From the NCBI GenBank assembly GCA_944358535.1, contig CALVRH010000002.1, forward strand, positions 27,840-91,839: 64,000 nt of DNA, written 5' to 3'. The translations under genes and the position numbers were made by a program. Each line of letters starts with the position of its first letter. Position 1 is the first letter of the stretch. This stretch comes from an uncultured Bacilli bacterium. Its GTDB lineage: Bacteria > Bacillota_I > Bacilli_A > RF39 > UBA660. Shown one piece after another: positions 2,108-36,458 of the stretch. The notes under the pieces were generated by a model. It searched no databases. It had not been told where the DNA came from and saw nothing but the letters and a program-made list of their open reading frames with translations.

Positions 2108-3865
2108 TTAATTGTATTCTATTATATCTTCAAACATTGATTCAATATTGTTTTTTGAATCATCTTCTTTAAAGATATCTTCTAATTTAAATTGTTCTTC
2201 TTTATAAATAAATGGTCTTAATTTATGATTAAAATCATTTTTAATTATTTCCCATTCATCTAAATTAGTTGCAATTAAATTATATTTTTTATTTAAAATT
2301 TTTTCAATAGTTTCTTCGAGAATTGGTAAATTTTCATTAAATAAGTCAGATAATCTATTTGTTTTAAAAACAAATATTAAATTTTCATCACTTGCAGCTT
2401 TTAAGGTACCATCTAAAATAATAGATGCTGAATGACTATATTCTGGGTCTAGTAATAAATCATTTAATAGTTCTAATGACGGGGTGATGTTTCTAACTTC
2501 TTGTTTGCTAAATTTAGCAAGCGTATTATCAATTCTAATTTGTTTTATTTTTTCAATATTATTTTTTAAGTTTTTGTTGATTTTTGGAATTTTTGGAGGT
2601 GTTTTAACTAATTCTTGAGTTGGTTTGTCGATTTCAACATTTTTTTTGTTTGGTTTTTGTTCGTTATTTTCGTTTTTATCATTAGAGTTTTCCACATTTT
2701 TTATTTGATTTTGTGGATAACTAACTATTTTTACTGAATTTTCATAATTTTTTTGTTCTAAACGTGCTTGTTCTGTGTTTTTTTCCACTATTTGTTGTTT
2801 TTTTTCAGAAATTATTTTAATAAGAGCTAATTCAAATAGTAATTTACTATTTGTATTATTTTTCATTTCAAAAGAGTATTTATTTAGTGTTTCAATGATT
2901 GTAAAAAGTTGATCTATATTAATTTTTGAAGAAATATTTTTATAAGTTTCAATATTTTTAGTATTTTCTTTAAAATAATTAGGTGCTTCTATAAATAAAA
3001 TAGTATTTCTTATAAATTCAATAAATTCTTCAATTAATTTAACAAAATCTTTTCCTTTATCATTATAGTTATCAATTTTTTTTAATATTTGATCTAATTT
3101 ATTATCTATTATGTTTTCTAATAGTTCACTTAGGTCTTCTTCGGTTAAAGTTCCGTTAATGTCATGAATATCATTTATGGTTATTTTTCCTTCGGTATAA
3201 GCTCTAGCTTGGTCAAGCATTCCGACAGAATCTCTCATTCCACCATCAGATAATTTTGCAATTTCATATAAGGCATTTTGATCAATATCTATTTCTTCTT
3301 TTTTGGCAATTTTACTAAGGTTTTCCACAATTGCATCATTGGTTATTTTTTTAAAATCTAATCTTTGACATCTAGATAGAATTGTTTCTAATACTTTGTG
3401 TGGATCTGTGGTGGCTAGAATAAATATTACATGAGCAGGGGGTTCTTCTAATGTTTTTAATAGGGCATTAAAGGCTCCTTGAGTAAGCATATGTACTTCA
3501 TCTATGATGTAAACTTTATATTTTCCATAAGCTGGTAATAAATTTATTTTATTTCTTAATTCTCTTATTTCATCGACACCATTATTACTAGCAGCATCAA
3601 TTTCAATAATATCGCTATTGTTTTCTTCTAAACAACTTACACATTTTCCACATGGCTTGCAATCTACGGGATGTTCACAGTTAATTATTTTAGCAAAGAT
3701 TTTGGCGATGCTGGTTTTACCAGTTCCTCTTGGACCAGCAAATAGGTAAGCATGGTTTATTTGATTATTTAGTATTGAGTTTTTTATAATTTTTACGATG
3801 ACATCTTGTCCACAGACATCATCGAGGGTTTTTGGTCTGTATTTTCTATATAATGCTTGATACAT
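2108..3865 (-). CDS. dnaX: DNA polymerase III subunit tau (gamma/tau)
   Basis: 585 aa with Walker A GPRGTGKTS, zinc module CGKCVSC, Walker B IIDEVHML and sensor SRCQRLDF, followed by a Lys/Asn-rich linker and C-terminal domain. Confidence 0.93.
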   Translation of the reverse strand: MYQALYRKYRPKTLDDVCGQDVIVKIIKNSILNNQINHAYLFAGPRGTGKTSIAKIFAKIINCEHPVDCKPCGKCVSCLEENNSDIIEIDAASNNGVDEIRELRNKINLLPAYGKYKVYIIDEVHMLTQGAFNALLKTLEEPPAHVIFILATTDPHKVLETILSRCQRLDFKKITNDAIVENLSKIAKKEEIDIDQNALYEIAKLSDGGMRDSVGMLDQARAYTEGKITINDIHDINGTLTEEDLSELLENIIDNKLDQILKKIDNYNDKGKDFVKLIEEFIEFIRNTILFIEAPNYFKENTKNIETYKNISSKINIDQLFTIIETLNKYSFEMKNNTNSKLLFELALIKIISEKKQQIVEKNTEQARLEQKNYENSVKIVSYPQNQIKNVENSNDKNENNEQKPNKKNVEIDKPTQELVKTPPKIPKINKNLKNNIEKIKQIRIDNTLAKFSKQEVRNITPSLELLNDLLLDPEYSHSASIILDGTLKAASDENLIFVFKTNRLSDLFNENLPILEETIEKILNKKYNLIATNLDEWEIIKNDFNHKLRPFIYKEEQFKLEDIFKEDDSKNNIESMFEDIIEYN

Positions 3866-3942
3866 CTTATCACCTCTATCTGTTTTATTATATCATATTT
3901 ATCCACAAAAAAAGGAAATAAGTTAGTGTATTTTTTGTTTAG

Positions 3943-4350
3943 TTACTTATTTCTTTTTGTTTTGAAAAAGTTTTTTAATAATTGAGAAGCTTTTTCCACA
4001 TTTTTTAATTGAATCATTGTAGGTTCTTTAAGGTTTGATTTTTTTTCTTGAGATGCAGCATAAATTACTTTTGATATTCTTGCCTGTTTTATTGTTTCTA
4101 AACACATTTTACATGGTTCTAGAGTCACATATAAAGTACAGTTGTCTAAGTGCCATGTTTTTTTCTTTTTACAGGCCTTTTCAATAGCATTTATTTCAGC
4201 ATGTCTTGTAATCATGTGAGTTTTTTCTCTTGTGTTATGTGCTTTAGCAATTATTTTATTGTTTTCTACTATGACTGCACCAATTGGAACATCATCTGTT
4301 TTTAAACTTTTTTTTGCTTCATTTAGGGCTATTTCTATGTATTTTTCCAT
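3943..4350 (-). CDS. tadA: tRNA-specific adenosine deaminase
   Basis: CDA-fold zinc motifs HAEINAI and PCKMC. ATG at 4350 is preceded by AGGTGG; the ORF-track GTG at 4359 overlaps that SD. Confidence 0.9.
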   Translation of the reverse strand: MEKYIEIALNEAKKSLKTDDVPIGAVIVENNKIIAKAHNTREKTHMITRHAEINAIEKACKKKKTWHLDNCTLYVTLEPCKMCLETIKQARISKVIYAASQEKKSNLKEPTMIQLKNVEKASQLLKNFFKTKRNK

Positions 4351-4370
4351 TATTACCACCTAATTAAAAA

Positions 4371-4443
4371 GGTACACACATTTAGAGGACCTTAAGGCTG
4401 CTATCTTCCGATTCTGACCTGGTTCAGCCATAAATGTTGTACC
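4371..4443 (-). ncRNA. ffs: small (4.5S-type) signal recognition particle RNA
   Basis: Reverse complement reads GGTACAACATTTATGGCTGAACCAGGTCAGAATCGGAAGATAGCAGCCTTAAGGTCCTCTAAATGTGTGTACC. It has the conserved helix-8 core CCAGGTCAG..CGGAAG..GCAGCC and a closing stem GGTACA/TGTACC. The locus next to tadA-dnaX matches the Bacillus scr neighbourhood. Ends approximate. Confidence 0.75.
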
Positions 4444-4605
4444 GATAATATAATATAATATTTTTTATAAAATTACAATTGTTTTTAATAAAAACAGTGT
4501 TTTTCCACAGTATTTTTTTTGATGATTTACATAGAATATAAAAAAATTTGCTATATATTTATGTGTATTAAATACATTTTTATTAATTTATACTGAATTA
4601 AATCA

Positions 4606-5924
4606 ATGTTTCACGTGAAACATTGTTATTACCTATATTTAAATTTTTTTACGTTTATTACAATTTAATAAAACATAATTATTTTGGCTTTTACTTGTTT
4701 TAAATAAATATTATTTGTTAATTTTGAAATTTTAAGTTGTAATTTTTTTATGTGATATATCCTATGTTTCACGTGAAACATTAAGTCTTTAAAAACTTTT
4801 TTTTAATATCAAGATTATATTTGATATTATATTATTTATATTAATAAAAAAAGGGGTTAATCAAAATAACTAATAAAAAGTAATGTATTTTAATAAATAA
4901 AAGGATAATTTAATTTAAATATATTAATTATATAATAACGTATAATATTGTTTATCATTTATAAAGTATAACAGATCAAAAATAGAAAACAATGTTTCAC
5001 GTGAAACATTGCATACCAGTATTTAAGTTTTAGTGGTTTATTGCAATTTGATAAAATATTCTTAATAAAACAAAACATAATCATTTTAGTTATTAATTGT
5101 TTTAAATAAATAATATTTATAAATTTTTAGATTTTAAGTTGTAATTCTTTTATGTGATATATTCTATGTTTCACGTGAAACATTAAGCCTGTGGAAAACT
5201 TTTTTATAAATATCAAGATTATATTTGATATTATATTATTTATATTAATAAATAAGGGTGTTTTACTTAAAATAACTAATAAAAAAACAATAATATATTT
5301 TAATAAATATAAGAATTTAATTTAAATATATTAATTATATAATAACGTATAATATTGTTTATTAGTTACAAGTATAACAAAAACAAAATAATAAACAATG
5401 TTTCACGTGAAACATTGTTTATTACCAGTATTTGAATTTTTAGTTATTTGTAGCATTTTAATAAAATATATTTATTTTAATTTTTATTTTAATTTAAATA
5501 AATATAATCTATTAATTTTAAAATATAAATTTAAAATTTTTGTATAATTATTTATCTTATGTTTCACGTGAAACATTAAGTCTGTGGAAAACTTTTTTTA
5601 TATTAAATATTTTTTACAAATAATATTTTATATTTTATATTTTATATCTTATTATTTTTTATTTAAAATTGAACAATGTTTCACGTGAAACATTGCATAC
5701 CAGTATTTAAGTTTTTAACGGTTTATTGCAATTTGATGAGAATATTTTTATAAAATATAATTATTTTGACTTTTACTTGTTTTAAATAAATAATATCTAT
5801 TATTTTTTGTTATCAATTTACATTTTCTTATGTGATATATCTATGTTTCACGTGAAACATTCACAAAAAAACGGTTTTGACACCGTTTTTAATTATACCT
5901 TTTTATATGTTTCACGTGAAACAT
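4606..5924. repeat. array of nine perfect parS sites inside a higher-order tandem repeat
   Basis: Exact 18-bp palindrome ATGTTTCACGTGAAACAT at 4606-4623, 4764-4781, 4992-5009, 5166-5183, 5398-5415, 5559-5576, 5676-5693, 5843-5860 and 5907-5924. The inner 16 bp equals the Bacillus parS consensus TGTTNCACGTGAAACA. Flanks alternate between two conserved types. Confidence 0.9.
5863..5890 (-). terminator. rho-independent terminator of gyrA
   Basis: Minus strand reads AAAACGGT-GTCAAA-ACCGTTTT followed by a T-run. Lies 40 bp after the gyrA stop, with one parS between stop and hairpin. Confidence 0.7.
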
Positions 5925-5927
5925 TGA

Positions 5928-8402
5928 TTATTCTTCTGAATTGTTTTCATTTTTTTGATTTTCAGAATCACTATTATCTTCTGATTCTTCTTTTATTAAT
6001 AAAGCTATACTACTTACTGTTTGGTTGTCTTTTAAATTGATTAATCTAACACCTTGGGCAACTCTTCCTGTTGTAGAAATTTGCTCGATTGGTAGTCTTA
6101 TTATTATTCCACTATTGGTAATTATCATTAAATCTTCATTACCTTTAACTATTTTGAATGAAACTATATTACCGTTTTTTTCGGTTATATTTAAGGCTTT
6201 AACACCTTTGCTACCACGATGTGTCATACGATATTCCTCAATATTTGTACGTTTTCCATAGCCTTTTTCTGTAACAACTAATATTTGTTCATTTGGATTG
6301 GCTATTTCACATCCAACACATTTACCATCGCCAAGATCTATACCTTTGACACCAGAAGCAGTTCTACCCATTATTCTAATTTCATTTTCATTAAATCTAA
6401 TCATACGACCATTTGAAGATGCAATTACTATTTCGTTTTCCCCATTTGTTTTCTTTACAGAAATTAATTGATCATTTTCTTTTAAAGAAATAGCAAGTTT
6501 TCCACTTTTTCTAATATTTTTGAATTCTTCAATAGCGGTTCGCTTTATTAATCCATTTTGTGTACAAAATACAATATTTTTATTTTCTTCATTTTGATTA
6601 ATTTTCAACATGGCAGTTACTTCTTCACTTTTTTCAAATGGCAATAAATTAACAATTGGTAAACCTTTTGATTGACGACTGTATTGTGGTATTTCATAAC
6701 CTTTTACTCTGTATGCTTTACCTTTATTAGTGAAGAACATTAAGTAATCATGAGTTGTCATTGATATAAGTGTTTCTACAAAGTCATCTTCATTAGTACT
6801 CATACCTTTGATACCAACACCACCGCGATTTTGTGTTTTATATGTTTCACTGGTCATACGTTTAATATAACCTTTATTTGTTAGTGTTACAACGATGTTT
6901 TCCACAGGTATGAGTGATTCATCCTCAATATAGTCAATTGCTGTCATATCTATGTTTGTACGTCTTTCATCACTATATTTATTCTTGATTTCTATCATTT
7001 CTTGTTTTATAATTTCTAAAACTTTAGCTTCTGATGCTAGAATTTCATTATAATATTTGATTTTTTCTAGTAAATCTTTTAACTCAGCTTCGATTTTTTC
7101 TCTTTCTAGGCCAGTTAAACGACGTAGTTTTAATTCTAGAATAGCTTCTGCTTGGACTTCAGTTAAACTATATTTAGCAATTAACTTAGTTTTTGCTTCT
7201 ACATCAGTTTTAGCATCTCTAATAATTTGAATAAAATCATCAATATTATCAAGAGCTATTTTATAACCTTCTAAGATATGAACTCTCTTTTCAGCTTTAT
7301 CTAAATCAAATCTTGTTCTTCTAATAATAACTTCTTTTTGATAATCAACATATTTTGAAATAATATCTTTTAACCCTAAAGTTCTTGGAGTATTATTATC
7401 AAGCATTAATAGAATAATTCCATATGTTGTTTGAAATTGGGTGTGTTTATATAAGTTATTCAAAACAACTTGTGGATTGGCATCTTTCTTTAATGTGATA
7501 GTTATTTTAATACCATTTTTTAAATCTGTATGATAGTCTGAGATACCATCAATTACTTTACTATGGACAAGTTCAGCTACTTTATCTTTTAAGTCTGAAG
7601 TATTTACACCATATGGAACTTCGTCGATAATAATGTAATGGCGACCATTTTTTTCTTCAATTGTAGCTTTACTTCTAATTGTAATTGTTCCACGACCTGT
7701 TTCATAGGCTTTTTTAATACCACTATTACCTAGAATAGTTGCACCGGTAGGAAAGTCTGGTCCTTTAATATACTGCATTAATCCATCGGTATCAATGTCT
7801 GGATTATCAATATAAGCAATACATCCATCAATTACTTCACCTAAATTATGCGGCGGAATATTGGTTGCCATACCAACAGCGATACCCATTGTTCCATTAA
7901 CTAAAATATTAGGGAAACGAGAAGGTAAAACAGTTGGTTCTTTTCTTGTTTCATCATAGTTTGTAGTGAAATCCACAGTATTTTTATTAATATCTCTTAA
8001 TAATTCTAAAGATATTTTGGCTAATCTTGATTCGGTATAACGCATGGCAGCGGCACCATAGCCTTCAATATTACCAAAATTTCCATGGCCATCAATTAAT
8101 GGGTAACGATAACTAAAGTCTTGTGCCATACGAACCATAGCTTCATAGATACTTGAATCACCATGTGGGTGATAATTACCCATTACTTCTCCGACAGTTT
8201 TTGCACTTTTCTTATGTGGTTTATCTGGGGTGTATCCAGATTCATACATTGAATATAAAATACGTCGATGTACAGGCTTTAAACCATCTCTTAAGTCGGG
8301 CAAAGCTCTTGATTTGATGACACTCATGGAATATTCAATAAATGATGATTCTATTTCATTTACAATGTTATTTTCTTCTAATCTATCTCTTGTATGATCC
8401 AT
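5928..8402 (-). CDS. gyrA: DNA gyrase subunit A
   Basis: 824 aa with [17 protein letters not shown], active-site region AAMRYTE and C-terminal beta-pinwheel repeats. Confidence 0.97.
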
Positions 8403-8412
8403 AAGTTACCTC

Positions 8413-11453
<3,041 letters not shown>

Positions 11454-11595
11454 GTTTTACATCACTACCCATTTTTAAGCTATTAATTTTTAAATTATAG
11501 TGTCTAGCATACTCCTATACCTCATTACCATTATACCACAAAATGGGCTTAAAAACGCAAAAATAGACGAAATAACGTCTATTTTATATTTCTTT

Positions 11596-12048
11596 TTATG
11601 AATTTTTTCGATTTTTTAAAATTAATAGTAATTTTGTAGCTCTTAATACTTGATTTTCAAAAGATTCATAGGATATATTTAAATCAATTTGATGGTTTGT
11701 TTTGAATAAAATAGTTACTTTATTTCCATTTTTCTTATAATCAGAAATGTTTTTTAAAGATATCCAAGCACATTCATTATTTTTATATGATGTGGTTGGA
11801 AATAATATTATTTCTCTTGTTTCTTCAACAATTATAGGTAATTTATATTTACTTCCTAGAACTGTTTTGGCACCTTCTAATCTTCCTTTGAATGAACTAC
11901 CGTAATATGAACAACTATAATCAATAAGTTTATTAATTGGATATTCAATATTTGTTATTCCATTAATATCAATTATGGTTGTGGAAAAGTTATTTTCAGT
12001 TATTAAAGCGCAGGTAGTACTATTAATTTCATATGTTTTTGTATTCAT
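11596..12048 (-). CDS. comK: ComK-family competence transcription factor-like protein
   Basis: Matches B. subtilis ComK blocks: SCSYYGSSFKGR (SCRFFGSSYAGR), KLPIIV..ILFPTTSYKNNECAWIS and ISYESFENQVLR (ISYNSFENQVYR). ATG at 12048 follows AGGGAGGA. Confidence 0.75.
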   Translation of the reverse strand: MNTKTYEINSTTCALITENNFSTTIIDINGITNIEYPINKLIDYSCSYYGSSFKGRLEGAKTVLGSKYKLPIIVEETREIILFPTTSYKNNECAWISLKNISDYKKNGNKVTILFKTNHQIDLNISYESFENQVLRATKLLLILKNRKNS

Positions 12049-12151
12049 AATTCCTCCCTTTGTCAAATGACATATCTCTTATACTCATTTTATAGGTCGA
12101 ATTTTGTTACTTTTTGTCATATAAAGGGAATTTTTAAAAAAAAAGAACTTT

Positions 12152-13273
12152 TTAATAAGTTCTTATAGGTAAAATCAATTGTATTAAGTCATCACTTAAT
12201 GGGTTTCTTAATATAATAGGTTTGATTTCTCCGTTGAACATTAGTTCTATTTCTTCAGATTCTAATGATTTTACAGCGTCCATCATGAATTTAGAATTAA
12301 AAGCTATTTTGATTTCACTATCATTATTTTTTTCTACAGTAATTTTTTCTTCAACATTGCCAATTTCAGGAATATTTGATGAAATAACAGCTATGTCATT
12401 ATTTGTTTCAAATTTTATAGTGTTTTTATCACTTTCATTAGTAAGTAATGAAGCTCTATCGATGGCACTATATAGATTATCATATTTAACTTTCATAGTT
12501 AATTCATAAGTGTCTGGAATTAGTTTTGATGTATCAGGGTAGGTGCCACTGATTAATCTAGTCATCATGACTATTTCATTAAATTTAAAAACTACTTTGT
12601 TTGCGAATATATGCATTTCAATATTTTCTTCATCTTCAGTCATTAGTTTTACTAATTCATTTAAGTTTTTATTTGGAATAACAATATTTGAGTTTTCCAC
12701 AGCTTTGTTTTCTAATGTAATTGTTTTAACAGCTAATCTATATGAATCAGTAGCAGTACATTTTAAAATGTTTTCATCAATTTTAAAGTTTATACCAGTT
12801 AATATTGGTCTTGTTTCACTAATTGAAGTAGCGAATGATGTTTGATTTATAATTGTTTTAAATAATTTTTGTTTTAAAATAATGGGGTTTTGATTAAATT
12901 CTAATTCTAGATCTGGAAATTCATTTACATTACTACAATTTAAAGTAAATGAAGAATTTTTAGTTGTTATGTATAATTTTGAATCAATTACTTCTTCTAA
13001 ATTTATTATTTCGTCTGGTAGTTTTTTTATTATTTCATATATATATCTACCTGATACAACTATTTCTCCAGTTGTATCAATTTTATTGATATTTTTTTTA
13101 TTAATAAATGTTTTAATAGAGATTTCACTATCGGTACTCATTAAATATAATCCTTCATCGGTTAATTCAAATTTTATACAGTTTAATATAGGTCTTAAAT
13201 TTTTTGTTGATATTCCTCTTATGACATAGTTTAAATGTTCTAAAAGTATATTTTGTTTAATTTCTAATTTCAT
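12152..13273 (-). CDS. dnaN: DNA polymerase III subunit beta (sliding clamp)
   Basis: 373 aa with three-domain clamp pattern and C-terminus LILPIRTY. Directly downstream of dnaA. Confidence 0.95.
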   Translation of the reverse strand: MKLEIKQNILLEHLNYVIRGISTKNLRPILNCIKFELTDEGLYLMSTDSEISIKTFINKKNINKIDTTGEIVVSGRYIYEIIKKLPDEIINLEEVIDSKLYITTKNSSFTLNCSNVNEFPDLELEFNQNPIILKQKLFKTIINQTSFATSISETRPILTGINFKIDENILKCTATDSYRLAVKTITLENKAVENSNIVIPNKNLNELVKLMTEDEENIEMHIFANKVVFKFNEIVMMTRLISGTYPDTSKLIPDTYELTMKVKYDNLYSAIDRASLLTNESDKNTIKFETNNDIAVISSNIPEIGNVEEKITVEKNNDSEIKIAFNSKFMMDAVKSLESEEIELMFNGEIKPIILRNPLSDDLIQLILPIRTY

Positions 13274-13329
13274 TAAAAATCACTCCTTTTATTTATTATT
13301 TATGTTTATTTTTTATTATTAATGTTCAT

Positions 13330-13410
13330 AAGTGTGGAAAAGTGTAATTTTACACCATAAATAAAGGTGTTTTACACTGTTTATAAAATGTGGAAAAGTG
13401 TGGATATTTT
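13330..13410. other. oriC part 2: DnaA-box cluster in the dnaA-dnaN spacer
   Basis: TGTGGAAAA at 13333-13341 and 13389-13397, TGTGGATAT at 13399-13407, in an AT-rich 150-bp spacer. Confidence 0.75.
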
Positions 13411-13422
13411 TATTTTTTTCCA

Positions 13423-14766
13423 CTACTTAATTTGATTTACTATTTTTGAAATTTCTACTTCAAGATTTTTATCTTTTTTTAGTTCTCTTTTTATTTTAGC
13501 AACTGAGTGCATTACTGTTGTATGATCTTTTCCACCAAATTCACTACCTATTTTTGGTAATGATTCTTTTAAATATACTCTACATATATACATACCTATT
13601 TGTCTTGGTACAGATATTTTGGATAATCTTTTTTTAGATTTTATATCTTCTACAGTAATGTTGTAATTGTTAGCTACTAACTGTATTACTTGATCTATTT
13701 TATTTCTAGATATTATGTTTTTTCCAATGTAATCTTTTAGAGCTTCAACGGCAAGCTCAAGAGTTATTTCAGATCCATTCATTATAGTAGCATAAGCAAA
13801 TACTCTAGTCAAAGCACCTTCTAATTTTCTGATGTCTGTGGTGCAGTTATTTGCGATATATTCTTTTACTTCTTCAGGTACATAACTTCCAATTCCTTGT
13901 GCTTCTATTTTTTTATCGAGTATTGCCATTCTTAGTTTAAAGTCAGGTGGTAAAATATCTATTGTTAATCCCCAATTGAATCTAGTTCTTAGTCTTTCTT
14001 CTAATTTTTTTAAATCATCTGGTGATCTATCAGAAGATATTATTATTTGTTTGTTTTTATTATGTAGTTCGTTAAAAGTGTTGAAAAATTCTTGTTGGGT
14101 TTTACTAGCTATTTCAAGGTATTGAATATCGTCAATCATGAGGACATCAATGTCACGGTATTTTCTTTTAAAGTTATCCACAGCTTTGAAATTACTTGTT
14201 TCATTTTTTCTATATATATTAAGAAAATCATCAACAAATTTTTCACTTGTTACGTATAAAACTTTTTTATTTGATGTAGATACTATATAGTTACCTATGG
14301 CATGCATTAGGTGAGTTTTTCCTAAACCGCTACTACCGTATATAAATAGTGGATTGTACATAGCACCTGGTTTTTCTGCAACAGCAAGTCCAATAGCTTT
14401 TGCAAATTTATTACTTTCTCCTGAAATAAAGTTATCAAAATTATATTTACTATCTAAGCCACTTTCAAATGTTGCTTCATTGTTATCAGTTATTTCTGTT
14501 TGAGGTTTATCTTCGGTTACTTCTTCTGGGGTAACATATTTAAATTTGAAGATAGATCCAGTTACTTCCATAAATGTTTCTTTTATTATGTCGCTATAGT
14601 TTTCTTGCAGATGTTTTTTATGTACATCTAGCGGTACTTCTACTATTGCATATTCGTTATTTAAATCAATTAATTTTGTGTCTTGAAACCATGTTTGATA
14701 TAAAACTGGTTTTAATTTTATCTCTATTTTAGATAAAAAAACGGACCAAATACTTTCTAAATCCAT
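13423..14766 (-). CDS. dnaA: chromosomal replication initiator protein DnaA
   Basis: Walker A GSSGLGKTHL, Walker B MIDDIQYL and C-terminal DNA-binding signature HTTVMHSVAKI. ATG at 14766 (MDLESIWS) chosen over the longer ORF-track start. Confidence 0.95.
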   Translation of the reverse strand: MDLESIWSVFLSKIEIKLKPVLYQTWFQDTKLIDLNNEYAIVEVPLDVHKKHLQENYSDIIKETFMEVTGSIFKFKYVTPEEVTEDKPQTEITDNNEATFESGLDSKYNFDNFISGESNKFAKAIGLAVAEKPGAMYNPLFIYGSSGLGKTHLMHAIGNYIVSTSNKKVLYVTSEKFVDDFLNIYRKNETSNFKAVDNFKRKYRDIDVLMIDDIQYLEIASKTQQEFFNTFNELHNKNKQIIISSDRSPDDLKKLEERLRTRFNWGLTIDILPPDFKLRMAILDKKIEAQGIGSYVPEEVKEYIANNCTTDIRKLEGALTRVFAYATIMNGSEITLELAVEALKDYIGKNIISRNKIDQVIQLVANNYNITVEDIKSKKRLSKISVPRQIGMYICRVYLKESLPKIGSEFGGKDHTTVMHSVAKIKRELKKDKNLEVEISKIVNQIK

Positions 14767-14835: not shown

Positions 14836-15064
14836 AACTGTGGAAAAAGATAAAAAAAATTATTAACAGGTTTTTTTTGTCGAAATTTAGGGGTTTTTGT
14901 AAAATTTCCACATATTATGTGGATAATTATTTTTGCACATTTGTGCATAAGTTTTTATTTTACACATATGTTGAAAAATAGTAAAAATGGTTTATAATAT
15001 AGGACTAACTTATGTGGAAATGTAATGTGAATAAAAGTTGAAAATATTTTACTGTGGAAAACTT
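14836..15064. other. oriC part 1: DnaA-box cluster upstream of dnaA
   Basis: TGTGGAAAA at 14839-14847 and 15053-15061, ATTTCCACA at 14904-14912, consensus TGTGGATAA (TTATCCACA) at 14918-14926, TGTGGAAAT at 15013-15021. A very AT-rich stretch follows. Confidence 0.8.
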
Positions 15065-15379: not shown

Positions 15380-15724
15380 ATGAAGAAAATTAATATTGTT
15401 AAAGAAAATCGAGATTTTAATCGAATTATTAAAAATAATAGGCCTTTTAAGTATAAAGATTATATTATATATATAGATAAAAGGGAGCCTTCTATTTATA
15501 AATTTGGCTTTTCTGTAGGAAAAAAAGTTGGAAATGCGGTTACTAGAAATCGAGTAAAAAGACAAATAAAGAATATTGTTTCCCAAAATGACTATCAAAA
15601 TGATTTTGATTGTATTATAATAGTTGGTAAGGGAATATTAAGTCGAAGTTTTAGTGAAATGCGTGAAAATTTAAATTATGCTTTAAAAAAATTGAAATTA
15701 GTAAAGGAGCGAAAAGATGCGTAA
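15380..15724 (+). CDS. rnpA: ribonuclease P protein component
   Basis: 114 aa, basic, with RNR motif AVTRNRVKRQIKN. Conserved rpmH-rnpA-yidC order. Confidence 0.9.
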   Translation: MKKINIVKENRDFNRIIKNNRPFKYKDYIIYIDKREPSIYKFGFSVGKKVGNAVTRNRVKRQIKNIVSQNDYQNDFDCIIIVGKGILSRSFSEMRENLNYALKKLKLVKERKDA

Positions 15725-16733
15725 AAAATTAGGACTGATATTTATAATTGCAATTTTGACTTTATCTTTATCTGGATGTACGACTTATGTTAAGGATAAA
15801 GATGGTAACCCAGTTAAGGAGACAACGACTGGGCAGACACTTGCTGAAAATATACTTTGTAAGCCAACAAATGAAGATGTACTAAAAACTTATAAGAAAA
15901 ATAAGGTCGATATTGAAGATTTACCTAAGTGTTCTGATTTTACTCCAACATCTGGTGATTATGGTGGTTTATGGGAAACAATTTTTATTAAACCTTTAAG
16001 TTGGTTTATTATTAAGATTGGTGAATTTCTTGGAAATTATGGTGTGGCAATTATTGCTGTTACTTTAATTATTCGTTTGGTTATTTTTCCAATTAGTAAA
16101 AAGTCAGCACTTCAATCTGAAAATATGAGGTTTGCTCAAAAGGATTTAGAAAAACTTGAAAGAAAATATCGTGGTCGTGAAAGTCAAGAAGATCAAATGA
16201 TGAAAGCGCAAGAAATGATGGGAATTTATAAGAAATATGATATTAATCCAATGGCTGGTTGTTTATTTGCGTTTATTCAAATGCCACTTTTCTTTGCCTT
16301 TTTGGAAAGTTTAAATAGATTACCTATTGTTTTTGAGGGTAAGTTTTTGGGATTTAATTTAGGTATGAGTCCTTTTGTTAGATTATTTGGAGGAAGTTTT
16401 GATTTTTCAGCATTTGCAGATAGTTTTACTAATGGTGGTTGGATTTATTTATTACTTCCAATTTTAGTAGGACTTACAACATTCTTCTCATTTAAGTTAA
16501 ATTCTGGTGTTAGTGGTGGAAGTGAAGAACAACAACATCAAATGAAGACTATGATGAATGTAATGCTTGTATTTATTGTAATTACTTCATTTACAATGCC
16601 AACAAGTATTATTATATATTGGATAACTGGTAGTTTATTTACTATTGTTCAAGCTGAAATTATTAGGAGGATGAAAGAAAATGCTAAAGGTGGTACAAAA
16701 CGAATCAAAAAACAAAGAAGAAGCGTTAACTAG
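15717..16733 (+). CDS. yidC: membrane protein insertase YidC/SpoIIIJ (lipoprotein form)
   Basis: Lipobox LSLSGC, five hydrophobic helices and a basic C-terminal tail KRIKKQRR. Confidence 0.9.
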   Translation: MRKKLGLIFIIAILTLSLSGCTTYVKDKDGNPVKETTTGQTLAENILCKPTNEDVLKTYKKNKVDIEDLPKCSDFTPTSGDYGGLWETIFIKPLSWFIIKIGEFLGNYGVAIIAVTLIIRLVIFPISKKSALQSENMRFAQKDLEKLERKYRGRESQEDQMMKAQEMMGIYKKYDINPMAGCLFAFIQMPLFFAFLESLNRLPIVFEGKFLGFNLGMSPFVRLFGGSFDFSAFADSFTNGGWIYLLLPILVGLTTFFSFKLNSGVSGGSEEQQHQMKTMMNVMLVFIVITSFTMPTSIIIYWITGSLFTIVQAEIIRRMKENAKGGTKRIKKQRRSVN

Positions 16734-17295
16734 GTGTTTGGAAGAGTTAAATGTTAATTCTAATGAGGTTTATTATTATATAGAAGAAGGAGAAGTGGGA
16801 CTTTTTGGCAAGAAAAAATATATTGCTTATGTTGTTACTAGATATGATGTAAAAATTTATGTAAAAGAATTTTTAAATGAGCTTGCTAAAAAAATGAATA
16901 CATCATTTAATGTAGAAGTAAATGAAAATGATGGGATTATTTCTGCTATTATAGTAACTGATGATAGTTCAGTTATGATTGGAAAAGAAGGAAAAAATTT
17001 AAATGCTATTCAAACGATTTTAAGGCAATCGCTTAGAAAATATGGTAATTTTGATATTAAGGTTAATTTAGATATTTCTGGTTATAAAGCTAAAAGACAA
17101 AAAAATATTGAAAGAGAAGTTAGAAAAATAGCAAAAGAGGTTTTAAAAACTAAGATTGAGGCTAAGTTAGATCCGATGAATTCTTACGAGAGAAGAATTG
17201 TTCACACTATAATTTCTGAATATGATAATTTAGCTACTCAAAGTGAAGGTGAAGCTCCTAATAGATATGTAGTTATTAAGATTAAGGAAGATTAA
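16681..17295 (+). CDS. jag: RNA-binding protein Jag/KhpB (Jag_N-KH-R3H)
   Basis: 204 aa with R3H motif NSYERRIVHTII. ATG follows AGGAGGA. Overlaps the yidC tail in another frame. Confidence 0.85.
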   Translation: MLKVVQNESKNKEEALTRCLEELNVNSNEVYYYIEEGEVGLFGKKKYIAYVVTRYDVKIYVKEFLNELAKKMNTSFNVEVNENDGIISAIIVTDDSSVMIGKEGKNLNAIQTILRQSLRKYGNFDIKVNLDISGYKAKRQKNIEREVRKIAKEVLKTKIEAKLDPMNSYERRIVHTIISEYDNLATQSEGEAPNRYVVIKIKED

Positions 17296-17324
17296 GTTCT
17301 TTCTTTTTTTCTTTTTAAAAAGAC

Positions 17325-17561
17325 TTAGATATCTTTTCTATCTAAGTCTTTGGCAGTAAATTCCTCTCCAGTAAGGTTATTTTTGAAGTATATAGAATAG
17401 TCGCAAAGTCCGGCTATTTTTTCGATGGTTTCAAAAGTTGGATTTCTTTGACCTTTTTCGTACTGTGTAATGGTATTTCCTTTTACTTTAATCATTTGAC
17501 CTAGGACTTCTTGTTTATATTTCTTTTGTTTTCTCATATATCTGATTACTTTTCCAATCAT
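17325..17561 (-). CDS. XRE-family helix-turn-helix transcriptional regulator
   Basis: 78 aa with HTH QEVLGQMIKVKGNTITQYEKGQRNP. Divergent from 17684. Confidence 0.8.
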   Translation of the reverse strand: MIGKVIRYMRKQKKYKQEVLGQMIKVKGNTITQYEKGQRNPTFETIEKIAGLCDYSIYFKNNLTGEEFTAKDLDRKDI

Positions 17562-17579
17562 TTAAATCACCAACAAAAT

Positions 17580-17662
17580 TATCTCATTTTGTGATATTTT
17601 CTTATTGACAACTCACAAAATGTGAGTTAATATATTAGTAAGATAAACTCACAAATTGTGAT
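17580..17662 (+). promoter_or_regulatory. promoter with three related operator palindromes
   Basis: TTGACA 17605-17610, 17 bp, TAATAT 17628-17633. The spacer is filled by the palindrome AACTCACAAAATGTGAGTT (17610-17628). Related sites are ACTCACAAATTGTGAT (17647-17662) and ATCTCATTTTGTGATAT (17581-17597). Confidence 0.6.
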
Positions 17663-17683
17663 TTTTGTATGAGGTGAAGATTA

Positions 17684-18613
17684 ATGAGAGTGATTAAAAA
17701 ATTTTTAAAGAATAATATTTTTTGTTTTATATTAGGAGCATTTATATTTGGAGTTATCGGAGTATCAGCGGCTACTTATTTTGCAAGTAGTAATGTTACT
17801 TATGATAATAGTGAAAGTGGTCTTTTAAGTACAGATGTACAGGGTGCGATAGACGAACTTTATGATGTTTTTAATAATACAACAATTTCTGGAGCTGGTG
17901 GCGAGATAATAGATAAATCTAATATAGTTAATTCTGGTGATGGGTTATATGCTGAAGATAAATATGTTTATAAAGGAGCTAATCCTAATAATTATATAAC
18001 GTTTAATGGGGAAAAAGCCGGCTGGCGAATAATATCTATCGAAACAGATGGAACAATAAAAATAATTAAAAGAACAACTTTATATGCTTTAAAGTGGGGC
18101 AGTAATCATGGTGATGCTGATTGGAGTACTTCTTACTTAAAAGAATATTTTAATACAACATATTATAATAGTCTTACTAGTGCTGCAAAACAACAGATAA
18201 TATCAAGTTATTGGCCACCTAGTGGTATGACTGGAAAAATTGTAAAAGATAAAATTGCATTATTTACAGTTCCTGAGTATTTAAGGGCAAATAGTAATGT
18301 AAGTCAATGTGGTACGGGTTTTTTGAATAGTCAAAATTCCAGCACATGTAAAAATACAAATTGGATATATAATATGATACTTAACGATACTACTAGGATT
18401 GGTTATTGGGTATGGACTTTGACTACTTGGATGAATGTAGATTCTGAACTTTATGGCTATGTTTATAGATTAAATGTTCCATCTGGAAATTTTACGGTAG
18501 ATTTATCAGTAAATGCTAATTCTTATGTGTATCCTGTTCTTTACCTTTCGTCAGATATTAAAATTACTGGTGGAAACGGTTCACAAAATAATCCATATGA
18601 AATTTCTTTATAA
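17684..18613 (+). CDS. secreted or membrane-anchored protein of unknown function
   Basis: 309 aa with N-terminal signal/anchor ending VSA-A, then NVTYDNSESGLLSTDVQGAIDELY and a Trp/Tyr-rich domain. Confidence 0.5.
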   Translation: MRVIKKFLKNNIFCFILGAFIFGVIGVSAATYFASSNVTYDNSESGLLSTDVQGAIDELYDVFNNTTISGAGGEIIDKSNIVNSGDGLYAEDKYVYKGANPNNYITFNGEKAGWRIISIETDGTIKIIKRTTLYALKWGSNHGDADWSTSYLKEYFNTTYYNSLTSAAKQQIISSYWPPSGMTGKIVKDKIALFTVPEYLRANSNVSQCGTGFLNSQNSSTCKNTNWIYNMILNDTTRIGYWVWTLTTWMNVDSELYGYVYRLNVPSGNFTVDLSVNANSYVYPVLYLSSDIKITGGNGSQNNPYEISL

Positions 18614-18740
18614 AAAGGCTAATTATATACAACAATGTATATTTTAGTCTTTTTTATTTGTAAAGAAGATAGTAAATTTTTCTTTGTGTGTTTAAATACG
18701 TTTAGTGATGTGTTATTATTTATAATAGGGGGAGTTGGTT

Positions 18741-20222
18741 ATGAAAAAGGGTTTTAATAATGAAAAGTATGTAGAAATACAAAGTAAAAGAATAAAGGAG
18801 AAAATAAAGGAGTTTGATAAGCTTTATTTAGAATTTGGAGGTAAATTATTTGACGATTATCATGCTTCGAGAGTTTTACCTGGTTTTGAACCAGATTCTA
18901 AAATAAAGATGCTTTGTGAGCTTAAAAAGATTACGGAAATAATTATTTGTATTAATGCTAAGGATATAGAAAGAAAGAAAATTCGGGCTGATTATGGTAT
19001 TACTTATGATATGGAAGTTTTGAGATTAATTGATGAGTTTCAAAATTTAGGATTATCTGTTAATAGTGTAGTTATTACTTTATATACGGGCAAGGAAAGC
19101 TCTAAGAAGTTTATTAATCAACTTGAAAAAAGAGGTGTTAAGACTTATGTCCATACACCTACTAAAGGTTATCCAACTGATGTTGATGTAATTGTTAGTG
19201 ATGAGGGTTATGGGGCTAATCCTTATATTAAAACGACTAAAAAATTAGTTGTTGTTACGGCTCCTGGTCCTTCTAGTGGTAAATTGGCTACTTGTTTATC
19301 TCAGCTTTATCATGAATATAAAAAGGGAGTTAAGGCTGGTTATGCGAAGTATGAGACTTTTCCTGTTTGGAATTTACCTTTAAAACATCCTGTTAATGTG
19401 GCTTATGAAGCGGCAACTGCTGATTTAAAGGATGTTAATATGATTGACTCTTTTCATTTAGAGAAATATGGAATTACTTCGGTTAATTATAATCGTGATT
19501 TAGCTGTATTTCCGGTGCTTAAAGCGATACTTTATAAGATTACGGGAAAAGATATATATTATTCGCCAACTGATATGGGTGTTAATATGATAGGTTTTTG
19601 TATTGATGATGATGAGGTTATTCGCATGGCTAGCAGGCAAGAAATTATTCGAAGGTATTATAAAGCTTTTTGTGATTATAAGACTGGTGATGCAGAAGAA
19701 GATGTATATAAGAGAATTAGGCTTTTGATGAACGAATTAGAAATTGATCCTTTGAAGGAAAGGCCGGTTATAAAAGTGGCTAGAGAAAAAAGTAGTTTGG
19801 AAGATTTACCGGTTATTGCGTTAGAACTTGGTAATGGAAAAATTATTACTGGTAAAAAGACTGAGCTTTTAAGTCCGGCTAGTAGTTTAATTTTAAATGC
19901 GATAAAGGCGCTTAATAAGATACCGGATGATGTTGATTTGCTTTCTAAATCAGTACTTGAGCCTATTTTAAAGTTAAAACCACTTAGTAATCACTCATCG
20001 AAATCATTAAATTTAGAGGAGGTTCTTATTACTTTAAGTATTTGCTCAGTTACTAATCCAATTATTAAAAAGGCTTTAAAGAATTTGAATAAGTTATCAG
20101 GGTTAGAGGCGCATGCATCTTTTATGGTTTATAATGGAGATTTGAATACTTTAAAGAGGCTTAATATTAATTTAACATGTGACCCAGTATTTTATTCGAG
20201 TAATTTATTTATGAGTGAGTAA
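18741..20222 (+). CDS. UPF0371/DUF1846 family protein
   Basis: About 493 aa. N-terminus FNNEKYVEIQSKRI...LYLEFGGKLFDDYHASRVLPGFEPD is characteristic of DUF1846. ATG at 18741 follows GGGGGAG. Confidence 0.65.
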   Translation: MKKGFNNEKYVEIQSKRIKEKIKEFDKLYLEFGGKLFDDYHASRVLPGFEPDSKIKMLCELKKITEIIICINAKDIERKKIRADYGITYDMEVLRLIDEFQNLGLSVNSVVITLYTGKESSKKFINQLEKRGVKTYVHTPTKGYPTDVDVIVSDEGYGANPYIKTTKKLVVVTAPGPSSGKLATCLSQLYHEYKKGVKAGYAKYETFPVWNLPLKHPVNVAYEAATADLKDVNMIDSFHLEKYGITSVNYNRDLAVFPVLKAILYKITGKDIYYSPTDMGVNMIGFCIDDDEVIRMASRQEIIRRYYKAFCDYKTGDAEEDVYKRIRLLMNELEIDPLKERPVIKVAREKSSLEDLPVIALELGNGKIITGKKTELLSPASSLILNAIKALNKIPDDVDLLSKSVLEPILKLKPLSNHSSKSLNLEEVLITLSICSVTNPIIKKALKNLNKLSGLEAHASFMVYNGDLNTLKRLNINLTCDPVFYSSNLFMSE

Positions 20223-20280
20223 AAAACGGTAATTTATTTACTGTTTTTTGTGCTATAATATTTGAGAAAAGGAGCTAATT

Positions 20281-20832
20281 ATGAGAAAAAAAGATATTAC
20301 AAAAGAGCTTGTTCAAGATGAGGAGTTTTTGAAGATAGTGGCTCCGATACTTGGGTCGAGTGAATTTCAGAAGCGTAAAAATTGGGTTCACCATGAGAAT
20401 TGTTCTCTTTATGAACACTGTTTAGTTGTTTCATATTTGTCATATAGGATATGTAAAAAAAGACATTGGAGTTATAAAGATGCGGCAATTGGTGGTTTAC
20501 TTCATGATTTTTACAAAGAACCTTGGCAAGAACATATATACGATAAGGTACCTTTTTTTAAAAAACATGGTTTTGTACATGCGCATGAGGCAATGGAAAA
20601 TGCTTATAAGTTTTTTCCAGAGCTTATGAACGAGAGAATTGCGAATATAATTGAAAGACATATGTTTCCACTTAATATAATTCCGCCTAAATATAAGGAG
20701 GGATGGGTTGTAACTTATGCGGATAAGAGACTTTCAATGGATGTGGTAGTTAATATTAAGGCTTTACCTAAGTATTTAGGTTTGGCTCGTATGTTTTATA
20801 AGATTAAGAATTTTTTTAAGTTTGGTAGGTGA
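20281..20832 (+). CDS. HD-domain phosphohydrolase
   Basis: 183 aa with H...HD pattern (HCLVVSYL, LLHDFYK). Confidence 0.65.
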   Translation: MRKKDITKELVQDEEFLKIVAPILGSSEFQKRKNWVHHENCSLYEHCLVVSYLSYRICKKRHWSYKDAAIGGLLHDFYKEPWQEHIYDKVPFFKKHGFVHAHEAMENAYKFFPELMNERIANIIERHMFPLNIIPPKYKEGWVVTYADKRLSMDVVVNIKALPKYLGLARMFYKIKNFFKFGR

Positions 20833-20836
20833 TTTG

Positions 20837-22186
20837 ATGGAAGATACGATAGCGGCTATATCAACGGCACAAGGTGTTGGAGCGATATCTATTATTAGGG
20901 TTAGTGGACCCGAGGCTATTCAAATTGTCAGTAAGATTTTTTCTAATAAAAAGTTTTATGATGCTCCTAGTCATACTATTCATTATGGTTATATAATGGA
21001 TGGTGATGAGAAGATTGATGAGGTTTTAGTAACTATTATGAGGAGTCCTAAGACTTTTACTAAGGAAGATATTGTAGAGATAAATGCTCATGGTGGAATT
21101 ATGACTACTGATAAGATTTTAGAATTGTTATTAGTTAATGGATGTAGATTAGCGGAACCTGGAGAGTTTACTAAAAGAGCTTTTTTAAATGGACGAATTG
21201 ATTTAACAGAAGCTGAAGGTGTTATGGATTTAATTAATTCAAAGACGGATATATCTAGAAAAATAGCTTTAAATCAAGTTGGTGGTAAAGTATCTAATAT
21301 GATTAGTAGGCTTCGAGATGAACTTGCCGGTATAATTGCAAATATTGAGGTTAATATTGATTATCCAGAGTATGAAGATATTGAAGAGATGACAATTGAA
21401 AAGATTAATTCTAATTTAAGTGAACTTGAAGATAAAATAGATAAGATTTTGAAGGAAAGTAAGAATGGTGAGGTTTTAACACATGGTATTAAAACGGTGA
21501 TTATTGGTAAACCTAATGTTGGAAAAAGTAGTTTGCTTAATAGATTAATTGGTGAGGATAAGGCTATTGTTACGGATATTAGGGGAACGACACGTGATAG
21601 TGTTGAGGCTACTTTACGTGTAGATAATTTAATTTTAAATTTAATTGATACGGCGGGCATTAGAAAAACTGATGATGTTGTTGAAAGTATTGGGGTAGAC
21701 AAGAGTTTAAAATTAATAGATGAAGCTGATTTGATTTTATTTGTAGTTAATTATAATGAAAAATTAAGTGATGAAGATTTAGTTATTTTAGATAGATTAA
21801 AAGGTAAAAATTATATTACAATAGTGAATAAAACTGATTTAGAGAAGAAAATTGATGATGATAAGCTTTCTAACGTGGTTTATGTTAGTGCTTTAAATGA
21901 TAAAAACATTGATGAAATAGGTAATAAAATTAAGAAGTTATTTAATTTAGAGAAAATTGAAACAACTGATTTAACTTATTTAACTAGTGCGAGAAGTCAA
22001 TCTATTTTAAGAAAGGTTTTAGGAAGTGTTAAAGCAGTTAGAAAAGGTATAGAAGAAAATTATCCTATCGATATGGTGGAAATTGATTTAAAGGATATAT
22101 GGAATTTACTTGGCGAGATAATTGGTGAGAGTTATGATGAGGAATTATTAGATCAATTATTTAGTAGATTTTGTGTTGGTAAGTAA
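20837..22186 (+). CDS. mnmE: tRNA modification GTPase MnmE
   Basis: G1 GKPNVGKSS, G3 DTAGIR, G4 NKTD and C-terminal FCVGK. Confidence 0.95.
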   Translation: MEDTIAAISTAQGVGAISIIRVSGPEAIQIVSKIFSNKKFYDAPSHTIHYGYIMDGDEKIDEVLVTIMRSPKTFTKEDIVEINAHGGIMTTDKILELLLVNGCRLAEPGEFTKRAFLNGRIDLTEAEGVMDLINSKTDISRKIALNQVGGKVSNMISRLRDELAGIIANIEVNIDYPEYEDIEEMTIEKINSNLSELEDKIDKILKESKNGEVLTHGIKTVIIGKPNVGKSSLLNRLIGEDKAIVTDIRGTTRDSVEATLRVDNLILNLIDTAGIRKTDDVVESIGVDKSLKLIDEADLILFVVNYNEKLSDEDLVILDRLKGKNYITIVNKTDLEKKIDDDKLSNVVYVSALNDKNIDEIGNKIKKLFNLEKIETTDLTYLTSARSQSILRKVLGSVKAVRKGIEENYPIDMVEIDLKDIWNLLGEIIGESYDEELLDQLFSRFCVGK

Positions 22187-22252
22187 AATATTTTATTTGA
22201 CTAAAGTGTTTCTCTGATGTAGAATTAACTCTAGTATTTGGTGGTGATTTAT

Positions 22253-24103: not shown

Positions 24104-24104
24104 T

Positions 24105-24803
24105 ATGAATTTAAATGAATTTAAAGTTGAAGTAGATAAATTAGGTATTAAGGTTACTGAAGAGGAGATAAGTAAATTAGAAAAGTATGCTTTACTTTTA
24201 AAAGATTGGAATGGAAAAATTAATTTGACTGCTATAACCGAAAAAGAACAAGTGTTTTTAAAACATTTTTATGATAGTTTAACTTTAGTTAAAATAATTG
24301 ATTTAAGTAAAATTGATAGTATATGTGATTTAGGAACAGGAGCTGGTTTTCCTGGAGTTGTACTTAAAATATTTTTTCCTAATTTAAAATTAACTTTGGT
24401 TGACGCTTTAAATAAAAGAATTAATTTTTTAGATGTTGTAGTTAAAGAGTTAAATTTGGAAAATGTTACTTTAGTGCATGCAAGAGCAGAAGAATATGGT
24501 AAAAATCATAGAGAATGTTTTGATGTTGTGACAGCTAGAGCTTTATCTAGTTTTCCTATTTTACTTGAGTATGGAATACCTTTATTAAAAACCTGTGGCC
24601 ATTTGATTGCAATGAGGGGTTTAAATGATAGTGTTGATGGGGTTAATGCGCTTAAAGTTTTAAATTCGAAAATTAATAATATTATTGAGTTTAAATTACC
24701 TTTTGAAGAGAGTAATAGAACTTTAGTTGATATAGTAAAAATTTCTCAAACTTCTTTGAAGTATCCTAGAAGGTATGCAGAAATTAAAAAGAAACCAATT
24801 TAA
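24105..24803 (+). CDS. rsmG: 16S rRNA (guanine527-N7)-methyltransferase
   Basis: 232 aa with SAM motif DLGTGAGFPG. Confidence 0.92.
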   Translation: MNLNEFKVEVDKLGIKVTEEEISKLEKYALLLKDWNGKINLTAITEKEQVFLKHFYDSLTLVKIIDLSKIDSICDLGTGAGFPGVVLKIFFPNLKLTLVDALNKRINFLDVVVKELNLENVTLVHARAEEYGKNHRECFDVVTARALSSFPILLEYGIPLLKTCGHLIAMRGLNDSVDGVNALKVLNSKINNIIEFKLPFEESNRTLVDIVKISQTSLKYPRRYAEIKKKPI

Positions 24804-24915
24804 GAAGTTTATAATATAAACTTTATCATTTTTTATGGTAAAGTTTTTTAAATGGTTGAATTATTTTCTAAAAAATAGTATGATAAAGTAAAAGAATAGA
24901 AGGGAGGGGTGGATT

Positions 24916-26643: not shown

Positions 26644-26647
26644 GTTT

Positions 26648-35018: not shown

Positions 35019-35258
35019 TTTACATTTTATTTACATATTATTATGTTTTTATATAAATTTTCAATAATATTACTTTTTAATATTTTAAAATAAACACTTT
35101 ATTTTATTAACATTTACTTTATATTTTTGAATAAAATGATATATATTGCTTTAAAAGGTAATAAAATGTAAAAAAATGTTATGTTAAATTAGTTATTCGC
35201 TGTTTGTGGGGTACTAAATTTTAATTAGTTTTGATATTCTTTTTTTGAGGTGGGAAAA

Positions 35259-36401: not shown

Positions 36402-36458
36402 ATTTGACAAAAATTTCTGATGTTATATAATATTTTCCGTATTTAAAGGGGGAATATT

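Follow-up and report, generated by a model that had tools for sequence, protein, structure and literature searches.

The window analyzed here, a 64,000-nucleotide stretch of contig CALVRH010000002.1 (assembly GCA_944358535.1), comes from an uncultured gut member of the Bacilli, an AT-rich organism (about 27% GC) that is kin to ‘Firmicutes bacterium CAG:822’ and Candidatus Coprosoma; the chromosomes of its complete relatives measure about 1.3–1.5 Mb. The window spans a putative origin of replication (oriC) and, on the dnaA side of it, a field of words matching the binding site of the initiator DnaA (DnaA boxes), which is the subject of this analysis. The left 15 kb hold, all on the minus strand, holB, recR, ybaB, dnaX, tadA, a signal recognition particle (SRP) RNA gene, a 1.4-kb non-coding stretch, gyrA, gyrB, recF, a ComK-family gene, dnaN, and dnaA; the identities of dnaX, tadA, recF, dnaN, and dnaA are backed by NCBIfam. 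The ComK-family gene (11596–12066), between dnaN and recF, has matches in 83 sequences, counting the fetched loci and the window itself. To the right of oriC, the rpmH side, the plus strand carries rnpA, yidC, mnmE, mnmG, rsmG, and a long ParB gene.

Boxes flank dnaA and, with a TAATAATAAAAAA tract and AT-rich DNA, form what we predict to be a layout as in the bipartite oriC of Firmicutes. Five perfect boxes lie inside oriC (13333, 13389, 14839, 14918, and 15053), and both oriC clusters are built from the same word as the boxes of the coding field. Domain IV of the DnaA encoded here, with its PRQ basic loop and GGKDHTTVMH signature, aligns with the solved Bacillus subtilis DnaA 8btg, and the cognate DnaA thus has a canonical DNA-binding domain IV. 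The boxes match the stringent consensus TTWTNCACA; the word of the field is TTWTCCACA, extended to K-TTTTCCACA. The features of the field and of oriC are as follows.

2688–2696, plus strand: box TTTTCCACA in dnaX, sense reading AAT-GTG-GAA-AAC (Asn-Val-Glu-Asn); orthologous site boxed in 12 dnaX sequences.
2712–2720, minus strand: box TTATCCACA, antisense in dnaX (Ser-Tyr-Pro-Gln), an inverted pair with the 2688 box with 15 bp between them.
2781–2788, plus strand: 8-mer TTTTCCAC in dnaX, ATA-GTG-GAA-AAA.
3321–3329, plus strand: box TTTTCCACA in dnaX, ATT-GTG-GAA-AAC.
3644–3652, plus strand: box TTTTCCACA in dnaX in another frame, TGT-GGA-AAA (Cys-Gly-Lys); 13 dnaX sequences boxed at the site.
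3899–3907, plus strand: consensus box TTATCCACA in the dnaX-tadA spacer, its orientation matching the coding copies.
3992–4000, plus strand: box TTTTCCACA near the 3′ end of tadA, AAT-GTG-GAA-AAA.
4356–4453: SRP RNA gene.
4501–4509, plus strand: box TTTTCCACA, non-coding, beside the SRP RNA gene.
4607–5923, no strand: parS array of nine perfect palindromes TGTTTCACGTGAAACA in repeat units of about 400 bp, mid-field, in the 1.4 kb of non-coding DNA (19% GC).
5190–5198 and 5583–5591, minus strand: boxes within the parS array, each 7 bp from a parS.
6898–6906, plus strand: box TTTTCCACA in gyrA, CCT-GTG-GAA-AAC (Pro-Val-Glu-Asn); 31 genomes carry the box.
8954–8962, plus strand: box TTTTCCACA in gyrB, at a universally conserved Asn-Val-Glu-Lys peptide.
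9197–9205, plus strand: box TTTTCCACA in gyrB, ATT-GTG-GAA-AAA; 19 carriers.
10339–10346, plus strand: 8-mer TTTTCCAC at the 3′ end of recF, GAG-GTG-GAA-AAA.
10852–10860, plus strand: box TTTTCCACA in recF, TTT-GTG-GAA-AAA; 17 carriers.
11980–11988, minus strand: box, antisense in the ComK-family gene (Phe-Ser-Thr).
12693–12701, plus strand: box TTTTCCACA in dnaN, GCT-GTG-GAA-AAC.
13333–13406, minus strand: oriC part 2, the dnaA-dnaN spacer, with boxes at 13333 and 13389 and an 8-mer at 13399, followed ahead of dnaN by TAATAATAAAAAA and an AT-rich tract.
14174–14182, plus strand: consensus box TTATCCACA in dnaA, GCT-GTG-GAT-AAC (Val-Asp-Asn); 14 carriers.
14839–15061, minus strand: oriC part 1, upstream of dnaA, with boxes at 14839, 14918 (TTATCCACA), and 15053 and 8-mers at 14905 and 15013.

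About 16 stringent boxes thus lie outside oriC proper in the 12 kb from dnaA to dnaX, none more than 12 kb from dnaA. Every site of the field is TTTTCCACA or TTATCCACA, 12 of the 16 full boxes fall in coding sequence, and the commonest coding form in essential genes is xxT-GTG-GAA-AA(A/C). Most are single boxes, spaced 93 bp to 2.4 kb apart except for the inverted pair at 2688 and 2712, and they show no positional pattern within genes; the densest part, 2688–4501, packs seven boxes into 1.8 kb. Close pairs also occur in relatives, where direct pairs at a distance of exactly 21 bp are seen in dnaX as well as in a gene some 3 kb past holB (L093, 8247–8276 and 13055–13084). A first-pass annotation of this DNA had listed nine copies of TTTTCCACA, the TTATCCACA box at 14174, the 8-mers at 2781 and 10339, and the inverted copy at 11980, all at the correct coordinates; its nine coding copies do read xxT-GTG-GAA-AAx, with GAT-AAC in dnaA. 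That list was incomplete, missing 3644, 3899, 2712, 5190, and 5583. Its statement that the boxes always have one orientation and always pass through GTG describes the plus-strand coding copies that it listed and fails for three coding boxes (3644, 2712, and 11980), and the shared orientation is largely a matter of coding opportunity.

These words are far more frequent than composition predicts. The window contains TTTTCCACA 21 times (1.13 expected), a count reached in none of 100 shuffles, with 17 copies in the first 15.1 kb, and TTATCCACA occurs seven times against 0.9 expected. Under the codon-shuffled null that the first-pass annotation had called for, run on the window as 1000 permutations of synonymous codons, the coding sequence left of oriC holds 10 sense TTWTCCACA boxes where 0.87 are expected, and no shuffle reached 10; the genes to the right hold four against 1.7 expected. 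Weaker boxes are not enriched in the window, the other one-mismatch variants numbering one against 2.3 expected.

Codon choice at these sites runs against the habit of the genes that contain them. G-ending codons are avoided in the left genes, where GTG makes up 8% of valine codons and GAG 3% of glutamate codons. At Val-Glu-Lys/Asn tripeptides, GTG is used in 10 of 12 cases left of oriC and in 1 of 11 to the right, which bears out the earlier manual count on the left and its estimate of about 1 in 10 on the right. Ten of the 17 GTG codons in the left genes fall within Val-Glu-Lys/Asn, and an 11th lies in the Val-Asp-Asn box of dnaA. Where synonymous recoding on the left could create a sense box it has done so at 10 of 14 sites, and for antisense boxes at 2 of 7; the near-uniform orientation of the boxes arises largely because Val-Glu-Lys/Asn is the cheapest coding route to the word. 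The tripeptide itself is in excess, with 12 left of oriC against 2.7 expected from within-protein shuffles. Synonymous choice is thus borne out as the route by which the sites are maintained, as had been proposed, but the effect extends further, to this tripeptide excess and to amino-acid replacements.

On the rpmH side, the first 13 kb of coding sequence (15380–27850) have no Val-Glu-Lys/Asn at all against 3.3 expected (P about 0.03). Box-prone peptides may be avoided there. The closest clade has 0.24 of these tripeptides per 1000 codons on its rpmH side, and outgroups about 1 per 1000.

More than 100 genomes supplied the loci that we compared, those around dnaA, around holB, and around two genes lying further out. 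Members of the closest clade (DnaA identity 84–94%) have, on the dnaA side, 4–11 sense boxes and 0–2 antisense boxes per roughly 9 kb of coding sequence, and 0–1 sense boxes on the rpmH side. In this clade GTG encodes 77% of the valines in dnaA-side Val-Glu-Lys/Asn and 4.6% of other valines. In clades of increasing distance this share drops to 61%, 30%, 35%, and 6%; it is 1 of 7 on the closest clade's rpmH side and 3–6% in outgroups.

Conservation at synonymous positions, the check in close relatives that had been suggested for the claim of maintenance by codon choice, supports that claim. Between the window and 19 close genomes, the GTG of a box is kept in 88 of 108 comparisons (81%), and other synonymous sites with G at the third codon position (G3) are kept in 212 of 910 (23%). 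Preference reaches beyond the 9-mer, in that the asparagine codon following a box is AAC in 61 cases and AAT in 13 (82% AAC, against a baseline of 25%), and the selected word is therefore a 10-mer. In 158 of 176 cases, T is the last base of the codon preceding the box GTG.

Individual genes show how boxes arise, persist, and are lost. In gyrA, the outgroup peptide Pro-Val-Glu-Asp (GTT-GAA-GAT) became CCT-GTG-GAA-AAC through an Asp-to-Asn replacement together with synonymous changes. In tadA, xAT-GTG-GAA-AAx is present in all 26 of the closest sequences, at amino-acid identities down to 63% and with varying flanking residues, and outgroups are unalignable at this site; judged from these alignments, the box in tadA has been kept in a stretch of protein that has not. 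The conserved Asn-Val-Glu-Lys site of gyrB carries a box in 23 orthologues out of 83, dispersed over the tree (GTG baseline about 5%), which points to repeated gain and loss of GTG while genomes keep 4–11 boxes each. Such turnover at a maintained box number fits selection on density. One relative (L053) has eight sense boxes in rpmH-side genes matching mnmG, mnmE, and rsmG in size and position; proximity to oriC and not gene function therefore decides where boxes accumulate. We take these patterns to show that natural selection maintains the box words in the DNA itself, by way of rarely used synonymous codons, now and then a replaced amino acid, and more Val-Glu-Lys/Asn tripeptides than expected. 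Most simply, the field is an origin-proximal set of presumably high-affinity DnaA sites in which selection acts on the number of boxes rather than on their exact place.

The field is compact and one-sided. On the dnaA side, box density is about 1 per kb at 0–12 kb from dnaA, 0.18 per kb at 13–35 kb, and about zero at 35–45 kb, and along the 49 kb of the right arm the word is at baseline. The first-pass annotation was right to see a local, one-sided field rather than a replichore-wide word. It had counted five full TTWTCCACA 9-mers right of oriC; our recount gives seven (34457, 35909, 35934, 36860, 39870, 57500, and 60288). Four of them, with 8-mers at 36245 and 36835, make a second small group at 34457–36868, with the box at 39870 further on; this group lies in and around an XRE-type/DUF4825 gene, beside minus-strand genes that include one for a collagen-repeat protein. 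At 35054–36300 there is almost no depth in the sequencing runs that hold the rest of the window, and this stretch is therefore probably a strain-variable island. Closer to the origin, at 17330–21000, two runs (X3 and X15) that contain the surrounding DNA cover an unknown 309-aa gene and a DUF1846 gene barely or not at all, which marks another strain-variable patch close to oriC.

Strand composition around this origin is unusual. The GC skew of the whole sequence flips sign at 14 kb, a change that mostly follows the direction of the genes. On the plus strand, third codon positions are rich in G and T on both sides of oriC, with no switch of GC or AT skew there, and the left genes have more C3 than G3, resembling two head-on genes on the right. 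Treating ‘left of oriC’ as a separate replichore, as the first-pass annotation did, is shaky because the third-codon-position skew does not switch at oriC. In the closest clade (L093, L083, L115, L129, L195, L211, and the window) the plus strand keeps its positive GC skew at third positions (GC3 skew), and its richness in T there, over 45 kb or more on the dnaA side, though most genes of that stretch point away from oriC; dnaA to holB and beyond thus resemble head-on genes. No switch was found leftward in relatives within about 45 kb. More distant clades have a normal switch. Since the field is also present in lineages with a normal switch (L012, L013, L065, and L044), field and skew anomaly are separable. 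Either the origin has moved, or replication is asymmetric, or the missing switch has some other cause. If forks leave oriC leftwards, TTWTCCACA lies on the lagging strand; the GC3 skew suggests the opposite fork direction, and orientation is confounded with coding opportunity.

The parS array in the middle of the field is the only one in the 64-kb window, with no further parS outside 4607–5923. Relatives whose DnaA identity goes down to 49% keep such an array directly after gyrA, and none has one within 10 kb on the rpmH side. In form it resembles the centromere arrays of plasmids, though it stands on a chromosome. The ParB gene (24916–26643) is unusually long, encoding 575 aa, and no ParA (Soj) gene adjoins it.

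We propose that the field is an origin-proximal sink or reservoir for DnaA, made of putative binding sites embedded in coding sequence, and give this reading roughly even chances. DnaA monomers would bind the boxes of the field, which would thereby hold initiator beside oriC; the field would be duplicated right after initiation, and free DnaA would then be lowered, helping to time initiation. Placement in coding sequence may reflect the scarcity of intergenic DNA in so streamlined a genome (27% GC, about 1.3–1.5 Mb), with Val-Glu-Lys/Asn offering the cheapest encoding of the word, which would also fix its orientation. The initiator-titration model is said to go back to Hansen, Christensen and Atlung in 1991.

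Known systems offer partial parallels. In Escherichia coli, DnaA boxes are concentrated around oriC, bear marks of positive selection, prefer the lagging strand, and titrate DnaA (Olivi et al. 2025, PMC12371093). As in E. coli, dispersed TTWTNCACA boxes are here over-represented near oriC beyond composition and conserved among relatives. The field described here, however, extends over about 12 kb rather than about 10% of the chromosome, is enriched more than tenfold, occupies one side of oriC, and is written via synonymous codons and amino-acid replacements in essential genes; a titration role is proposed here by inference. In B. subtilis, box clusters close to oriC repress early initiation in a location-dependent manner, with the strongest restraint from positions near oriC, and such elements were predicted to be common in bacteria without SeqA and Hda (Okumura et al. 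2012, PMC3245932). The two organisms share a Firmicute-type bipartite oriC, extra boxes close to it, and a link with Spo0J/parS that is functional in B. subtilis (PMC3245932). In B. subtilis the clusters are compact, lie between genes, and in several cases also serve as promoters, whereas the boxes here are mostly single, hundreds of bp apart, and inside coding sequence, only 2688–4501 approaching a cluster. Like the field, E. coli datA is a DnaA-box locus outside oriC, and it restrains initiation; it is a non-coding locus of about 1 kb with five boxes and an IHF site that promotes hydrolysis of DnaA-bound ATP, features not seen in the field. What is new here is that the field is embedded in coding sequence, is compact and one-sided, and offers proof of selection at the codon level; a search of the literature available to us for coding-embedded DnaA boxes kept by codon choice found none.

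Several points weigh against a DnaA sink or reservoir. DnaA sites of B. subtilis that lie within open reading frames (rplB) and are strong in vitro go unbound in vivo, possibly cleared by transcription, and single boxes bind weakly in comparison with clusters (PMC4447404). Titration alone does not account for the one-sidedness of the field in this clade, and sequence by itself leaves the direction of any effect on initiation open to a sink or a local concentrator. Finally, the background density rests on about 45 kb left and 49 kb right of oriC rather than on the whole genome, and comparisons among relatives are not phylogenetically independent.

Two alternatives seem to us improbable, though worth weighing. 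The first is transcriptional control, in which DnaA bound inside dnaA, dnaN, recF, gyrB, gyrA, and dnaX would act as an orientation-dependent roadblock or attenuator and the initiator level would tune the replication genes. Most carriers in the window are indeed replication genes, and their boxes are sense-oriented. There is also a precedent in E. coli, where Schaefer and Messer reportedly found in 1989 that DnaA boxes in transcribed regions (asnC, guaB) block RNA polymerase in one orientation. A roadblock sits poorly, however, with boxes that have no positional pattern within genes, with sites that turn over while their number is kept, and with an orientation bias that largely reflects coding opportunity (14 sense against 7 antisense sites). 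The strongly conserved box in tadA and the L053 boxes in rpmH-side genes of mnmG, mnmE, and rsmG size and position tell against it too. A regulon restricted to replication genes is weakened by the same L053 carriers and tadA box.

The second, of similarly low probability, is that the boxes organize the origin domain, placing DnaA within a ParB-parS centromere domain so as to concentrate initiator at oriC (a positive antenna) or to couple initiation to segregation, rather than to titrate it. The field surrounds the nine-parS array, two of its boxes stand 7 bp from a parS, and the window has a ParB gene. In B. subtilis, losing Spo0J acts synergistically with losing the box clusters (PMC3245932). 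That the array always lies on the dnaA side would also supply a reason for the field's one-sidedness. Against this, no ParA gene adjoins the ParB gene, the L053 field lies on the side without parS, and parS number does not track box number, three relatives (L015, L039, and L045) having 7–8 parS and 0–1 boxes. A coupling of box number to parS copy number was accordingly rejected, the two being uncorrelated in relatives.

More doubtful still is a bolder proposal, that in this clade the field is a replication-control element dual-coded into essential genes at the level of codons and amino acids, that it flanks an oriC which is no strand-skew switch, and that its one-sidedness and the clearing of the tripeptide from the other side would be part of an asymmetric origin that favors one fork direction, or would reflect an origin moved away from dnaA.

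A highly unlikely reading makes the field a polar barrier or marker tied to the missing skew switch, with one-way replication or a relocated origin. It draws on the GC3 skew of the closest clade, with no change from positive across oriC or over at least the next 45 kb on the dnaA side, on a box density that is highest in the clade without a switch, and on the absence of Val-Glu-Lys/Asn (0 against 3.3 expected) from the first 13 kb of the other side. A strict link of field to skew anomaly is nevertheless ruled out by the normal-switch clades that have the field (L012, L013, L065, and L044). Nor was there a coverage step at oriC, contig word depth being flat across it in four chicken-gut runs (about 40–45 on both sides in X1 and X2), a weak test in that it uses assembler depth and not raw reads, and populations that need not have been growing. 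DnaA-box complexes are also not known to act as fork barriers.

We give equally little credence to recognition of the word by a different factor, or to a skewed architectural word of the type of FtsK-orienting polar sequences (KOPS), SpoIIIE recognition sequences (SRS), or Chi. These, too, are short oriented words enriched in coding sequence, and the strong orientation bias here, with a preference reaching the tenth base, would suit such a role. But KOPS, SRS, and Chi are replichore-wide, occupy both arms, and have a polarity to the terminus, whereas the word here is confined to a few tens of kb of one arm and is identical to the boxes of both oriC clusters. A replichore-wide skewed word was rejected, as the right arm is at baseline and left density decays with distance from oriC, with no rise towards the terminus.

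That the boxes have no function, being products of chance, a codon-pair effect, or mutational bias, is hardly credible: peptides of the Val-Glu-Lys/Asn type are common where a proteome is AT-rich, but none of the 1000 codon shuffles reproduces the boxes, the left genes otherwise strongly avoid codons that end in G (GAG 3%, GTG 8%), box GTG is retained at 81% against 23% at other G3 sites, and a general GTG-GAA codon-pair preference is rejected by the use of GTG in the same context at 1 of 11 sites on the right, 1 of 7 on the closest clade's rpmH side, and 3–6% in outgroups.

These results provide clean evidence from evolution that selection acts on dispersed single DnaA boxes outside oriC in their own right, with enough force to outweigh codon bias and to alter amino acids in gyrase, clamp, clamp loader, and DnaA. 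They support initiator-titration ideas in a Firmicute-like lineage, and the stepwise fall of box density across related clades makes these bacteria a natural, gradable system. Such sites would matter for genome recoding or the synonymous redesign of origin-proximal genes. Replication control may hide in coding DNA, outside the view of origin finders and annotation pipelines.

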